Of a DNA stretch of 6,100 nt, positions 508 to 6,064 are shown in pieces. The notes below the pieces were generated by a model. The model did no database searches. It had not been told where the DNA came from and worked only from the letters and a program-made list of their open reading frames with translations. Origin of the DNA: Halomonas sp. (GTDB lineage: Bacteria; Pseudomonadota; Gammaproteobacteria; Pseudomonadales; Halomonadaceae); the NCBI GenBank assembly GCA_007116835.1, contig SKHS01000123.1, positions 1 to 6,100 of the forward strand. The letters are read 5' to 3'. Numbering within the stretch: position 1 is the stretch's first letter; every line of letters starts with the position of its first letter. A program made the translations under genes and the position numbers.

Positions 508-520
508 TCCGTTTTATTTC
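491..520 (+). terminator. weak candidate intrinsic terminator overlapping the methyltransferase stop codon
   Basis: AAAACGG (491-497) pairs with CCGTTTT (509-515). The 11-nt loop contains the TGA stop and is followed by TTTTATTTC. The stem is mostly A:T, so support is weak. Confidence 0.3.
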
Positions 521-540
521 TTACACACTTTGCTACACAC
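520..540. repeat. two adjacent CT(T)ACACAC motif copies
   Basis: CTTACACAC at 520-528 and GCTACACAC at 532-540. These are degenerate copies of the exact 10-mer at 681-690 and 925-934. Confidence 0.4.
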
Positions 541-680
541 CAAAATTTATCACGCTGTAGGGCGCATAAATGCTGGGTTTTGTTTGAGTGTCTGCTCTCA
601 TAATCCAATCACTCTGGTAAGCTGTTGGGCAGGAACCCAGTAAAATAGCGGCTTGTAGCGTGTTTTTGGTGCTGTATTTT

Positions 681-799: not shown

Positions 800-876
800 G
801 GGCCCATAGCTCAGTTGGTTAGAGCAGAGAACTCATAATTCTTTGGTCACAGGTTCAAGTCCTGTTGGGCCCACCA
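800..876 (+). tRNA. tRNA with CAT anticodon; features favour tRNA-Ile2 (lysidine-modified CAU) over elongator tRNA-Met
   Basis: A 77-nt cloverleaf folds by hand. Acceptor stem GGGCCCA (800-806) pairs with TGGGCCC (866-872), then discriminator A873 and encoded CCA 874-876. The D arm is TAGCTCAGTTGGTTAGAGCA. Anticodon stem GAGAA/TTCTT (827-831/839-843) carries loop CTCATAA with anticodon CAT at 834-836. T arm is ACAGG-TTCAAGT-CCTGT. C4:G69, C5:G68 and G27:U43 match the E. coli tRNA-Ile2 pattern as I recall it. Confidence 0.95.
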
Positions 877-2446: not shown

Positions 2447-2620
2447 TTACTGAGTGGCAAGTTGTGACAACTGCTGCTGCGTTTTGCGCAGTTTGAGTTG
2501 TAGAGCAGCACGGCGAGCAGATTTTGTGGCAGCTTTGGCAGCACTCTGTTGCGCTTTGACACGCTGGGTGTCGGCGTTGAGATGATTGTTTTGTTGGCTG
2601 ACGACTTCTGCGATACGCAC
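2447..2620 (-). CDS. 57-aa basic, probably helical small protein (GTG start); not listed in the ORF track
   Basis: My hand translation of the minus strand gives VRIAEVVSQQNNHLNADTQRVKAQQSAAKAATKSARRAALQLKLRKTQQQLSQLATQ*. GTG is at 2620-2618, preceded by GAGGAG (2633-2628) with a 7-nt spacer. The start lies 27 nt downstream of the stop of the 146-aa gene (operon-like spacing). Stop TAA at 2449-2447. There are 10 K/R versus 2 D/E. The gene is real only if translated, and no homology was recognised. Confidence 0.4.
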   Translation of the reverse strand: MRIAEVVSQQNNHLNADTQRVKAQQSAAKAATKSARRAALQLKLRKTQQQLSQLATQ

Positions 2621-3088: not shown

Positions 3089-3252
3089 TTTGAGTTCCTT
3101 TTGTGCTGTGTTGAGAAGGTGTCGTTCAAAACGACAAACAGCACGATATGTTCTGACAAGCACGTAGGACAACGGGTTTAGGCAAGAAAACAGGGCTATG
3201 AACAGGACAGGTAAAAAAATATTGGTTTTTCTGTTCAAAGCTAAATAACTGT
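3089..3252. promoter_or_regulatory. divergent intergenic control region between the 146-aa gene and the rep-like gene
   Basis: A 164-bp gap separates two divergent starts. It contains palindrome GTCGT-N5-ACGAC (3121-3135) and the composite inverted repeat TATGAACAGGA (3197-3207) ... CTGTTCAAA (3231-3239), which ends 13 nt before the rep ATG. I could not identify convincing -35/-10 hexamers by eye. Confidence 0.5.
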
Positions 3253-3819
3253 ATGAATACATCACATACAGCACACAACAAAGCAGCCTACGCAGCAGCG
3301 CAGCAGGGCTATTTACAGCACATCGCACAGCACTGCGATTACGCCGTCACGCTACAAACCAGTTTGCGCACGTGTGGCATTAAGGCAAAAACAATGGAAG
3401 ACAGGCTGTACAGGACGCAGGGAAGTTTGAGGCAGCTGCGCAACAGGTTAAACAGGCTACTGACAGGCAACGGCTACAAGCGCAACAACAGGTATCTGCC
3501 GATATTTGTTGCGGCTATAGAGGGCACGACAAACAGCTACGACTTAAACAGAACGCTACACATACACGTGGCACTAGGCAACACAGGGCACACAGCAAAC
3601 GAACAAACACGCAGGCTGATAGAAGACGGCATTAGGCAAATATGGGCAGCAACAGACGTAGGCACAGCTGACGTAAAAGTGGATAGGCTGACACAGGGAA
3701 CAGAACACAGATGGATGGACTACATAGGTAAAGAGTCACACGCAGGGCGAACAGGCAACATAGACGTCATCGACTACAGCAACACACAAATACCCGAACA
3801 CTTACTACAGCGCACTTAA
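3253..3819 (+). CDS. HUH-superfamily rolling-circle Rep-like protein (188 aa), possibly of the YagK/YfjJ or inovirus Gp2-like type
   Basis: The ORF is the first possible start after an in-frame stop at 3199-3201. Three motifs occur in canonical order: Y30-AVTLQT (motif I-like), E90 then L-H103-I-H105-VAL (HUH motif II, codons at 3559-3567), and D-Y157-IG-K160 (YxxK motif III). No Shine-Dalgarno sequence is visible. The coding call is good, but the functional call rests on motifs only. Confidence 0.6.
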   Translation: MNTSHTAHNKAAYAAAQQGYLQHIAQHCDYAVTLQTSLRTCGIKAKTMEDRLYRTQGSLRQLRNRLNRLLTGNGYKRNNRYLPIFVAAIEGTTNSYDLNRTLHIHVALGNTGHTANEQTRRLIEDGIRQIWAATDVGTADVKVDRLTQGTEHRWMDYIGKESHAGRTGNIDVIDYSNTQIPEHLLQRT

Positions 3820-4071
3820 CAGGCGAACAACACATTAGGCAAGCGTGTGATTTGACGAAGCGTTGATTACACAAATAGAGAGACAACAAGACAAGAGGGA
3901 TACTGACACTGTGAAGCGGTGGTTAGTTGTATGAGTGTGTTCGAGACATTTTCAAACAAAGTCAAACACTGTGATGAAAAACACAACGAACAAAATCCGA
4001 CAAAGAACGACACGATGAACAAACGAACAGTGATGACACAGAGAACACACGCAGAAACACACAGTAGGGGT

Positions 4072-4082
4072 CATAAATCAAC
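4072..4082. repeat. left arm of perfect 11-bp inverted repeat (CATAAATCAAC)
   Basis: CATAAATCAAC at 4072-4082 is the exact reverse complement of GTTGATTTATG at 4404-4414. Confidence 0.85.
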
Positions 4083-4190
4083 ACGTGGCAGAAAAACAGG
4101 CAGACGCTGAAAAACGCACGGTGGATTTTTGTGGGCTAAAGATGAAAATTGGCTGAGCACATACACAGCAGAACAAACAGCAAAACGCAC

Positions 4191-4233
4191 AGCGCATAGC
4201 AAGCACTCAAAACGCTTCTATGCGCTTTTTTTT
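4191..4233 (+). terminator. strong rho-independent terminator
   Basis: AGCGCATAG (4191-4199) pairs perfectly with CTATGCGCT (4218-4226). After a bulged C4200 the stem extends with AAGC (4201-4204) pairing GCTT (4214-4217), leaving a 9-nt loop. A run of eight T residues follows (4226-4233, the first shared with the stem). Confidence 0.8.
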
Positions 4234-4360
4234 GGCTGTGCGAATAGCAACACAGCACAGCATCAAAAAACGCAGCGTGTAGGGCGTTTTAAAGCGTCGA
4301 TAAATGTGGCTTATTGACTACGAACATACGTACAGCACGAGCAAAGCAGCGGTAAATACA

Positions 4361-4392
4361 TATGAACAGGAAATACGCAAAAACTGTTCAAA
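4361..4392. promoter_or_regulatory. second copy of the composite TATGAACAGGA ... CTGTTCAAA inverted-repeat motif, upstream of the small recombinase
   Basis: TATGAACAGGA at 4361-4371 is identical to 3197-3207. CTGTTCAAA at 4384-4392 is identical to 3231-3239. TGAACAG and CTGTTCA are reverse complements. An extra half-site ATGTTCAAA lies at 4484-4492. Confidence 0.55.
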
Positions 4393-4403
4393 TGCTGTAA
4401 GTC

Positions 4404-4414
4404 GTTGATTTATG
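4404..4414. repeat. right arm of perfect 11-bp inverted repeat (GTTGATTTATG)
   Basis: Exact reverse complement of 4072-4082. A related direct copy CGTTGATT occurs at 3861-3868 (compare 4403-4410). Confidence 0.85.
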
Positions 4415-4511
4415 GAAGGCTTTTGCGTGTCAAAAATAGGTAGGAAAAACGATGAAAAGAAAACACACTATACGCAGCAAACAATGTTCAAACGCAAACA
4501 GGAGCAGCACA

Positions 4512-5078
4512 ATGGCGCAAGCAGCAACATTAGACACGCAACAGCTACAGCGGGTGTTGGACTACTTAAAAACACGCAGACACTATCAACGCAACAGAGT
4601 GATGCTGCTGCTGACACACTGGTCAATGCTGCGTGTGGGCGAAGTGGCAGCGCTGCGCTACTGTGATGTGTTGGACAGCAACGGACAGATATTAAGTGAG
4701 ACTGTGCTGGCGGCAACACAGACGAAGGGTGAAAAGAGCAGACGCATTTGGTTTAACGAGCGTATGCGTGCGGAGTTGGCAGCGTATGTGGCAGCACACA
4801 AACCGAAACACAAAGCGCAGAAACTTTTTTACACACAGCGCAGTGAAGGTTTTACAGCAAACACGCTGACACACATCATCAACAGCTTCTATCAAAAAGC
4901 GGGCATCGCAAACGCATCATCACATTCGGGCAGACGCAGTGGTTTAACTGCGTTGGCAGATAAAGGAGTGAGTGTGCGTGTGCTGATGGCGATTGCGGGG
5001 CACAGCCAGTTAGCGACAACACAGCGGTATATTGATTTACGGCCCAGTGTTGTTAAGGCTGCGGTGGAGTTGGTTTAG
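4512..5078 (+). CDS. small tyrosine recombinase consisting of the catalytic domain only (188 aa from ATG 4512; 208 aa if ATG 4452 is used), FimB/FimE-like in size
   Basis: All canonical catalytic motifs are present: MLRVGEVAAL (Arg), HSGRRSGLTALA (H-x-x-R), AGHSQLATTQRYIDL (His ... nucleophile Tyr). ATG 4512 is preceded by AGGAG (4500-4504) with a 7-nt spacer. ATG 4452 has only a weak GGA upstream and would add a basic low-complexity leader. Stop TAG at 5076-5078. Confidence 0.85.
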   Translation: MAQAATLDTQQLQRVLDYLKTRRHYQRNRVMLLLTHWSMLRVGEVAALRYCDVLDSNGQILSETVLAATQTKGEKSRRIWFNERMRAELAAYVAAHKPKHKAQKLFYTQRSEGFTANTLTHIINSFYQKAGIANASSHSGRRSGLTALADKGVSVRVLMAIAGHSQLATTQRYIDLRPSVVKAAVELV

Positions 5079-6064
5079 ATTTTTTCAGCTACACAATGGA
5101 TTTCTGAGCAAAAGTGATTTCTATCAAAAATAGACTGAATCTCATCTATTTTTTGTCCAAATCCTGTATGTAAGTAATCCATTAGCTTTTGCGAAGATTT
5201 GTTCTTTTGTAGTGTCGTAAGTGTTTGTCGGTATAAATCCATCGCATCAGTTCCGAATCGCCATTCAGCTAATGATTTGACGCCGATTAGTTCGTTCATT
5301 TCTTTGATCGAGTTTTCTGTGAACAAGTGCGTATGGCCGCCTGACAACTGACGAGGGAAAACTTCTGTGAATATATTTTCTAAAATAACAGAAAATGAAA
5401 ACATAGGCACTGAGTAATAAAGATATTGAGCGTTGCTTTTTTTGAAGGCCTCAAAAAACTTGCGAGGCTCTCGCAAATGCTCAAAGACTCCTATTGCTGA
5501 AATCACATTTGCGTTACTTTTTATTATTGAGTTATAAAAACCTTGTTCGTTTTCGAAGCTAAGAGGCTCTATATTTGAATGATGTGAGATTTGATTATTT
5601 CCAAAATCGACCATAGTCTTGCTTACATCTAATCCTGTGGCGCTTAAGTTTCTTAGCAATGCTGCCAAAACAAAATATCCGCTGCCACAGCCGACATCTA
5701 ATATTTCATATTTTTTAGGCGGTAGACTTGCTATAAGGAAATCAACTTTTGGGATATAAATATCAGTAGTTCTTTTGTGAAAATCTTTATCAATGTAGTT
5801 ATTTGAGTAATCGCTGCCAGCGTCTAAAATGTAAAGTTTCTCAATGAAATCTTGAGTATCTTCAAACTTGCCGTTTAAGTGAGAGCATTTGGAACAGAAA
5901 ACATAGTCAACACCGTGCGAATGAAAGTCTAATGAGTTTGGAAGCGGAGATTCGCAAACCTTACATAAATCTCGTTTGGGTTGACTTGCGTATAGGGTAT
6001 TTTGTTTTATTGATTTTTCAAGAAGCTCTTGATTGGCAGTAAAGAAATCTTTTTTTGTGTTCAA
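5075..6064 (-). CDS. class I SAM-dependent methyltransferase with N-terminal Cys4 zinc-ribbon-like motif (329 aa from TTG)
   Basis: ILDVGCGSGYF is SAM-binding motif I, followed by ATGLDVS and ISAIGVFEHL. The N-terminal CKVCES...CSKCSHL resembles the zinc-binding domain of sugar C-methyltransferase-like enzymes. The track start is TTG (6064-6062) with no Shine-Dalgarno sequence, and the frame stays open to base 6100, so the true start may lie beyond the window. The gene is AT-rich, unlike the insert. Confidence 0.85.
   Translation of the reverse strand: MNTKKDFFTANQELLEKSIKQNTLYASQPKRDLCKVCESPLPNSLDFHSHGVDYVFCSKCSHLNGKFEDTQDFIEKLYILDAGSDYSNNYIDKDFHKRTTDIYIPKVDFLIASLPPKKYEILDVGCGSGYFVLAALLRNLSATGLDVSKTMVDFGNNQISHHSNIEPLSFENEQGFYNSIIKSNANVISAIGVFEHLREPRKFFEAFKKSNAQYLYYSVPMFSFSVILENIFTEVFPRQLSGGHTHLFTENSIKEMNELIGVKSLAEWRFGTDAMDLYRQTLTTLQKNKSSQKLMDYLHTGFGQKIDEIQSIFDRNHFCSEIHCVAEKI

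Follow-up and report, generated by a model that had tools for sequence, protein, structure and literature searches.

The 6,100-nt stretch of DNA analysed here (the window: positions 1 to 6,100 of contig SKHS01000123.1 of Halomonas sp., assembly GCA_007116835.1) carries a small integrative chromosomal element of ~4.2 kb at a tRNA-Met gene, with genes for a tyrosine integrase (int), a DUF6641 protein, a 188-aa Rep-like protein (rep) and a small tyrosine recombinase. Upstream of rep (copy 1) and of the recombinase gene (copy 2 and a third, degenerate copy 3) this element contains hairpins that are conserved in related elements, with the pairing kept by compensatory substitutions, and that lie beside a protein with HUH and Y-x-x-K motifs and a predicted fold with a modest resemblance to that of HUH initiators. 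Our preferred, though still tentative, reading is that the hairpins are recognition, origin or nick sites of the element's own HUH Rep, which maybe also control the expression of rep and of the recombinase. Binding and nicking of the hairpins by Rep, the strand and position of the cut and the replication that would follow are what we infer from this arrangement.

Conserved stem-loops upstream of rep and of the recombinase gene

The initial annotation of the window had described an 11-mer, TATGAACAGGA, at 3197-3207 and 4361-4371, followed in each case by a 9-mer, CTGTTCAAA, at 3231-3239 and 4384-4392, and a further half-site, ATGTTCAAA, at 4484-4492. These coordinates are exact and, as had been claimed, TGAACAG and CTGTTCA are reverse complements. 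The probability of about 1e-3 given to the linked 11+9 match was not borne out, as 241 of 2000 dinucleotide-preserving shuffles (12%) contain a linked direct repeat of this kind with flexible gaps of up to 40 nt; exact repeats of at least 11 nt amount to 18 pairs in the window against a mean of 8.3 pairs per shuffle. When at least 7 nt of the first block had to recur in the second as their reverse complement, none of the 2000 shuffles had such a composite, and the pattern TGAACAG-N5-35-CTGTTCA, found twice in the window, was absent from 200 shuffles. The composite is thus unusual because of its internal reverse complement, and not as an 11+9 repeat as such. We also considered the 3' end of the tRNA gene as the origin of the GTTCAA words and discarded it, as the similarity is not meaningful.

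The comparison with relatives constitutes stronger evidence than these shuffle statistics. A search with the Rep-like protein yielded 14 chromosomal loci and 80 freshwater metagenome contigs (loci are cited by our L numbers) and, when homologous elements were aligned as the initial annotation had suggested, the motif was found at the same positions across dozens of them. Of the 14 genome loci, 9 have the pattern in its exact form. Identical 7-nt arms in copies 1 and 2 were seen in only 2 of 65 loci, so that the exact identity of the two copies is lineage-specific.

Copy 1 has a 25-nt, A/T-rich loop that includes AAATATT, and its right arm ends 13 nt before the rep ATG; as single-stranded DNA (ssDNA) it folds with -8.5 kcal/mol (z -4.2). 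In an alignment of the 70 nt upstream of rep (56 distinct sequences) its position is fixed, with the left arm at about -54 to -56 and the right arm at -22 from the ATG, and 92% of the cells in the stem are paired, compared to only 33-47% in slid registers. The pair 21-57 is AU in 37 sequences, GU in 8, GC in 8 and CG in 3 and is never unpaired. The covariation observed in the alignment was matched by none of 500 shuffles. The arms are TGAACAG/CTGTTCA in the window and in the L003 group, and elsewhere TGAGCAG/CTGTTCA (with a G-T on the + strand), TGAGCAG/CTGCTCA, AACATAG/CTATGTT or AACAC/GTGTT, while the L090 group has TTGACCAAA/TTTGGTCAA, with an 11-bp stem and a loop that is 4 nt longer. Whatever the arms, the loop core AAATATT is kept.

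A TAAATA box (box 1) follows copy 1, and both its sequence and its spacing to the ATG are the same in nearly all aligned relatives, including the most distant ones. The rep ATG lacks a Shine-Dalgarno sequence, and box 1 could serve as a -10 element, the rep mRNA then being leaderless, or belong to the target of Rep; a scan for sigma-70 promoters and terminators called nothing at the hairpins and did not call box 1 either. The rep start codon itself lies inside another hairpin (3249-3271; CTGTATG/CATACAG in the window group). The first codons of rep in the L003 group are made up of tandem half-sites, ATGAACAATGAACAG, that are able to pair with the right arm of copy 1, and in L014 a 12-bp hairpin encloses TAAATAC and the rep ATG; the rep starts of L011 and L012 were compared as well.

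Copy 2 folds as ssDNA with -6.3 kcal/mol (z -5.3). Its position, -151 from the recombinase ATG, is constant in 49 distinct sequences. The stem is 83% paired and shows both AU/GC and GC/CG switches (pair 19-42: AU 41, GC 5, GU 1; pair 23-38: GC 23, CG 12), the AAATAC core of its loop is invariant and the TAAATA box on its 5' side (box 2) is invariant or nearly so. In the L040/L088 group TTTT replaces AAAA in the loop, by which the stem grows to about 14 bp, and L014, from Macromonas, has the same AATACGCAAAA loop between wholly different arms (AGAATCAAAGC/GCTTTGATTCT). The recombinase start, which we placed from homologues (188 aa, beginning M[AT]Q[AS]ATL), is the ATG at 4512, preceded by the Shine-Dalgarno sequence AGGAG at 4500-4504; counted from there copy 2 ends 119 nt upstream, which corrects the 60-120 nt first assigned to it. 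Copy 3 does not fold in the window; in relatives (L001, L027, L036 and L044) an inverted repeat with a single mismatch is located at -61 from the start of the recombinase gene.

Between copies 2 and 3, a stretch of ~32 nt (4405-4435) is inverted with respect to L003 (~7080-7112); the inverted alignment between the window group and the L003/L004/L085 group has a local score of 16-18 over a background of 7-9. This small inversion is ancient, and it lies beside the gene for a recombinase of invertase-like size. An invertible switch between the two copies was considered and rejected, as the orientation is fixed in each lineage and no active switching is evident.

The motif copies are therefore conserved same-strand stem-loops and not duplex operators or iterons of fixed spacing, because the arms co-vary within a copy and not between copies, G-T intermediates occur and the length of the loop shifts. 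In fact, the substitutions form series from A-T through G-T to G-C, and also from G-C to C-G, and the one-sided changes are mostly G-T on the + strand, which is the sense strand of rep. The arms of copies 1 and 2 of one element drift independently and each copy still pairs, which fits intramolecular pairing rather than a single duplex-binding specificity, and stems have been lengthened in L088, L040 and L090. The centre-to-centre spacings of the motif (32, 21 and ~36 bp) vary, the half-sites diverge independently and library scans found no helix-turn-helix (HTH) or ribbon-helix-helix (RHH) protein nearby, so that little speaks for duplex operators; the stem-loop adjoining rep, with its compensatory pairing and conserved loop sequence, has the features of an origin hairpin. 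The initial annotation had read the copies as operators for a regulator encoded by the element or as Rep iterons. A functional cis-motif of the element common to the control regions of rep and of the recombinase, and sites for Rep, agree with our results, and duplex operators and iterons do not. The Rep sites are the best-supported part of that proposal, because the neighbouring gene is truly Rep-like.

The Rep-like protein

We treat the 188-aa protein as a divergent HUH rolling-circle initiator on the basis of its motifs and of transitive homology, with fold evidence that is supportive but modest. Its candidate active site consists of E90, H103-I-H105 and Y157-x-x-K160, and the family consensus is T-L-H-x-H-x-x-x-G-N (TLHxHxxxGN) and W-x-x-Y-I-x-K-E. 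In the AlphaFold2 model (pLDDT 79.5) the HUH motif, T-L-H103-I-H105, is on a strand (101-109), and Y157-I-G-K160 follows C-terminal to it at a helix (151-158). H103 and Y157 never vary among 88 diverse members, and E90, W131 and K160 hardly do, K160 being present in at least 90%. The family comprises 166 clusters, all of ~170-210 aa (profile search of 1.84 billion representative proteins, 50% identity). PF23343 (REP_ORF2-G2P) is matched by 21 of the 88 members (best E 2.5e-8) and Rep_1 by 2 of them; three members that were checked singly fall below the curated cut-off of the Rep family model, and the link to curated families is transitive only. Foldseek searches of a viral library returned replication initiators of microviruses and the replication protein of a Vibrio (V. 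cholerae) phage (best E 9e-5, probability 1.0), and replication proteins of inoviruses are likewise among the folds that the protein resembles. In the PDB, the best match was a RAYT protein bound to its hairpin, together with parvovirus NS1 and adeno-associated virus (AAV) Rep nuclease domains (E 0.016-0.1, TM 0.34-0.40).

Possible functions of the stem-loops

The typical target of an HUH enzyme is a hairpin, within or next to which the enzyme cuts, as at CRESS and geminivirus origins, at the double-strand origin of pMV158, in RAYT proteins with their REP hairpins and in IS608, and the origin of small rolling-circle replicons is usually located just upstream of rep. Copy 1 would then be the best candidate for a double-strand origin or nick hairpin, used in the replication or mobilisation of the excised island. 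Rep would probably control its own expression through copy 1 as well, since this copy overlaps the rep start region. Copies 2 and 3 may be secondary Rep sites in the leader of the recombinase, tying its expression to Rep, or else a site of strand termination or re-initiation. The fixed positions hold across ~50 distinct elements whose Rep is only 50-85% identical, and the loop cores AAATATT and AAATAC resemble the ATAY that presumably follows the nick in origins of the pC194 and phiX174 types. Moreover, one Rep-less lineage was found and is available for comparison. Four metagenome contigs recovered through DUF6641 (L096-L099) encode a DUF6641 protein, an integrase of another kind, with 459 aa, and a small recombinase of 46% identity; searches that included profiles found no rep gene or remnant in them, and ~1 kb without any open reading frame (ORF) of over ~70 aa takes its place. 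The equivalent regions retain AAATATT and TAAATA remnants with no significant fold, a decay that is weakly consistent with stems that depend on Rep.

Several observations count against Rep sites. The stem decay just described is weak evidence, because the Rep-less lineage is distant. The Rep of the window has no direct match in Pfam, PHROG or NCBIfam, a profile search of PDB sequences gave only noise, and the fold matches are modest (TM 0.35-0.5). No fetched locus showed a circular or junction form, and neither did the two short Rep contigs examined, both of which are collinear fragments. AAATAY is all that the loops of copies 1 and 2 have in common, and in copy 2 of the L040 group this core is drawn into the stem. 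The asymmetry between G-T and A-C changes comes from few independent events (~5 vs 2). Finally, a role in regulation alone would explain the constant distances to two start codons and the conservation of the TAAATA boxes just as well.

Such a role, in which rep and the recombinase would be regulated jointly, with no nicking, through hairpins that are palindromic operators or inverted repeats embedded in promoters, is in our opinion somewhat less likely than Rep sites; the binding factor could be a protein of the element or of the host, possibly Rep as a repressor only, the DUF6641 protein or the 57-aa protein. It would account for the positions at -56 from rep and at -151 and -61 from the recombinase, for copy 1 lying in the divergent DUF6641/rep intergenic region beside a conserved TAAATA box, for centre-to-centre spacings in the window of 32 and 21 bp (approximately 3 and 2 helical turns), for the extra direct half-sites at the rep start of the L003 group (ATGAACAATGAACAG) and for the survival of TAAATA and AAATATT remnants in the Rep-less L096 lineage. 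However, no DNA-binding regulator is recognisable, as neither the DUF6641 protein nor the 57-aa ORF matched an HTH or RHH family in the library scans, the spacing is altered by 4 nt in L090, the arms of the two copies diverge independently while the pairing is kept in each, and no sigma-70 promoter was called at the hairpins. The DUF6641 protein as a classical repressor was rejected: its AlphaFold2 model is confident (pLDDT 85) but has no significant fold match in the PDB, it matches no DNA-binding family, and copy 1 is still present in L084 and L085, which lack DUF6641. It seems improbable to us that the copies are RNA stem-loops of 5' leaders that govern how stable the recombinase mRNA is or how well it is translated, with copy 2 located at its 5' end and copy 3 immediately upstream of its Shine-Dalgarno sequence. 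The G-T intermediates are on the sense strand, a TAAATA box precedes the core stem of copy 2 by 4 nt, a wobble-rich second hairpin appears after copy 2 when the region is folded as RNA, and the terminator at 4191-4232 calls for a fresh transcription start downstream of it and ahead of the recombinase gene. Nevertheless, the whole leader folds no better than shuffles (z -0.14) and matches no Rfam family, and copy 1 would be left unexplained, being probably not transcribed with rep because both TAAATA and an ATG devoid of a Shine-Dalgarno sequence lie downstream of it.

The copies are also direct repeats adjoining a recombinase gene, and the initial annotation had raised the possibility of recombination sites flanking an excisable module. 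In such a scheme res-like or folded, attC-like sites would be used by the small tyrosine recombinase to excise or resolve the 1.16-kb rep module. Folded hairpins are indeed substrates of integron integrases and, in the case of the CTX phage, of XerCD, and a recombinase module with copies 2 and 3 occurs without int and rep in L036. We nevertheless find this scheme very improbable: the arms are 14-25 nt apart, where the core sites of tyrosine recombinases have 6-8 bp between inverted binding arms of 9-13 bp, the stems have only 7-11 bp, there are no boxes of the GTTRRRY type, and the junctions of the L036 deletion are outside the hairpins, one at the int ATG and the other ~50 nt upstream of copy 2. 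A sequence search of the fetched loci revealed no fusion of copies 1 and 2, no exact loss of the 1.16-kb module and no junction of a 1.16-kb circle, although rep-less products are under-sampled, as the loci were mostly chosen through rep. We give equally little credence to a more elaborate scheme in which the hairpins would be an origin/terminus pair for rolling-circle synthesis in situ from the integrated island, similar to that of tandem CTX prophages, releasing ssDNA (a 1.16-kb rep minicircle or strands of island length) that would feed the small recombinase without N-terminal domain; this enzyme would then swap cargo at its own stop codon, in an integron-like capture of cassettes by streamlined freshwater bacteria. 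A chance event or a recent local duplication devoid of function has a practically negligible probability: generic 11+9 composites are common enough in shuffles (12%) to allow it, but composites with an internal inverted repeat occur in none of 2000, and fixed positions and compensatory changes in ~50 distinct elements from several genera effectively refute it.

Comparison with known systems

The sites proposed here for Rep resemble the rolling-circle double-strand origins of pMV158/pC194-type plasmids, of Microviridae and Inoviridae (gene A/gene II) and of CRESS viruses and geminiviruses in that a stem-loop precedes a small HUH gene, the stem co-varies, the A/T-rich loop has a conserved core and the hairpin is on the rep sense strand; the extra half-sites nearby are comparable to the f1 gpII repeats or to geminivirus iterons. 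However, the present element is integrated in the chromosome and has its own tyrosine integrase, two or three related hairpins are present of which two lie in the recombinase leader, structural genes, a helicase or an extrachromosomal form were not detected, and its Rep family is an orphan whose links to PF23343 and Rep_1 are only transitive or below threshold. CTX-phi/RS1 of Vibrio cholerae combines the HUH initiator RstA, rolling-circle synthesis from tandem integrated copies and Xer recombination at a folded ssDNA site. To this system the element seems similar in its HUH initiator, its directly repeated origin-like sites in an integrated array, its Xer-like tyrosine recombinase and a regulator-like gene divergent from rep; it differs in that its hairpins are far too short to mimic dif, in having its own integrase and in its target, tRNA-Met or guaA instead of dif.

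An HUH gene between two similar hairpins of the same strand, and a RAYT protein with its hairpin as the best PDB fold match, also recall the IS200/IS605 TnpA and RAYT/REP systems. The TAAATA boxes are on the inner sides of the hairpins, opposite to the geometry of the IS608 cleavage sites. An IS200-like or RAYT-like mobile module was rejected, as rep and the hairpins never occur outside the DUF6641-rep-recombinase context; this constant context, with which the rep-hairpin module diverges together, argues that it is not an independently mobile insertion sequence. Finally, tRNA-Met tycheposons have been described in freshwater Methylophilaceae (PMC10872708). With tycheposons, integrative mobilisable elements and minimal satellites the element shares an integrase island at tRNA-Met, a host range of streamlined aquatic bacteria, tandem arrays with partial tRNA repeats and a variable distal cargo, but it is much smaller (a core of ~4.2 kb plus one cargo gene) and its core of Rep, DUF6641 and small recombinase has conserved hairpins.

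We found no description of the element in the literature on DUF6641, on Polynucleobacter islands or on tycheposons with rolling circle. Origin hairpins beside HUH initiators are known, and so are integrase islands linked to tRNA genes; the combination is undescribed in the literature searched, namely an orphan Rep family and three same-strand hairpins common to rep and a truncated recombinase in an integrated mini-island of abundant freshwater bacteria. Few bacteria of fresh waters are as abundant as Polynucleobacter and Limnohabitans, and the diversity of their strains is driven by small genomic islands. The family described here has a core of integrase, DUF6641, orphan HUH Rep, three hairpins and truncated tyrosine recombinase, followed by a single, nearly locus-specific cargo gene. 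If the hairpins are Rep origins, these islands would replicate or mobilise by a rolling-circle route that is undescribed for tRNA-linked islands of planktonic bacteria, and the Rep family would gain a function and a defined DNA target.

Gene layout and relatives

The features of the window are collected in Table 1. Between rep and the recombinase gene there are ~690 nt without a conserved ORF, and these contain the terminator, which sits ~370 nt past the rep stop; a pattern scan overlooked it because of its long loop, and folding confirmed it later. The small recombinase consists of the catalytic domain only, without the N-terminal core-binding domain. An Rfam scan of the window returned the tRNA only, and BLAST searches of phage and plasmid collections with the element gave no match.

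Table 1. Positions of genes, stem-loops and other features in the 6,100-nt window
Feature	Positions	Strand	Details
tRNA-Met	800-876	+	ARAGORN, Rfam; left end of element
Tyrosine integrase, 445 aa	978-2315	+	Pfam and PHROG integrase matches; left end of element
57-aa ORF	2447-2620	-	leftward
DUF6641 protein, 146 aa	2648-3088	-	Pfam PF20346, PHROG 31551; divergent from rep
Stem-loop copy 1	3195-3241	+	stem GCT.TGAACAG / CTGTTCA.AGC: 3 bp, A-A mismatch, 7 bp
TAAATA box 1	3242-3247	+	directly 3' of copy 1, 5 nt before rep ATG
rep-like gene, 188 aa	3253-3819	+	treated as divergent HUH rolling-circle initiator
Rho-independent terminator of rep transcription unit	4191-4232	+	GCGCATAG...CTATGCGC then T8; RNA fold -18.1 kcal/mol, z -3.65
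TAAATA box 2	4353-4358	+	5' side of copy 2, abuts outer CAT of stem, 4 nt before TGAACAG core
Stem-loop copy 2	4359-4394	+	stem CAT.TGAACAG / CTGTTCA.ATG; 14-nt loop GAAATACGCAAAAA
Copy 3, degenerate in window	4453-4492	+	TGAAAAG...N25...TGTTCAAA; ~60 nt before recombinase ATG, just upstream of Shine-Dalgarno sequence
Small tyrosine recombinase, 188 aa	4512-5078	+	Pfam Phage_integrase 2e-24; NCBIfam partial Xer-type matches
Methyltransferase gene, AT-rich	5075-6064	-	convergent

The relatives of the element are found in Polynucleobacter, Limnohabitans and other freshwater Betaproteobacteria, the 14 chromosomal loci being from Polynucleobacter, Limnohabitans, Hydrogenophaga, Chromobacterium, Macromonas and uncultured Burkholderiales. 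The gene order DUF6641, rep, recombinase is kept across them: rep adjoins DUF6641 or int in all loci with a readable upstream flank, and the recombinase follows rep wherever the downstream sequence is sufficient, except in L011. The integrase is modular, as one type adjoins tRNA-Met and the other, of 429 aa, the 3' end of a GMP-synthase-like gene (guaA). Loci L003, L004, L008, L010 and L013, on the one hand, and the window, L001, L002, L005 and L007, on the other, have the same core with these two unrelated integrase types and targets, which points to modular exchange of the integration module.

Cargo genes and neighbouring islands

In ~45 related loci the homology between elements ends exactly at the stop codon of the small recombinase (...GGTGGAGTTGGTTTAG; 5075-5078 in the window). 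The sequence past it differs in almost every locus and usually contains one convergent gene (for a methyltransferase, an acetyltransferase or others) whose stop codon abuts or overlaps that of the recombinase, and in L001 (7858-8990) and L036 (2892-3900) an attR-type arm comes directly after the single cargo gene. The recombinase stop thus looks like a site at which one cassette is swapped. Cargo that starts exactly at the recombinase stop is a more unusual observation than the hairpins and may deserve its own study.

Upstream of the tRNA-Met gene, window positions 516-606 (and also 634-704) match the attR-type arm of related islands, in which CTTACACAC repeats are followed by GTAGGGCG..ATAAATGCTGG and by the end, CTCATAATCC, which is the anticodon-loop crossover. 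This match places the window inside a tandem array of islands, and the gene at 70-507 is probably cargo of the preceding island. Part of the same arm (553-580) resembles a box upstream of copy 2 (4272-4322), GTAGGGCG...ATAAATG(T/C)GG; a conserved GGCTTATTGACTACG box follows the GTAGGGCG box, and its distance to the TAAATA box, 33 nt, is the same in two divergent groups.

In L036 a second recombinase module (4225-5176; copies 2 and 3 and the recombinase, 96% identical to the window) comes directly after tRNA-Met. The whole segment from int to rep is deleted there, with junctions at the int start codon and at a conserved GTGGCTT(A/T)TTGACTACG box ~50 nt upstream of copy 2. Both L001 and L036 have, in addition, a small conserved ORF (MYKAQYKA...) before the tRNA gene.

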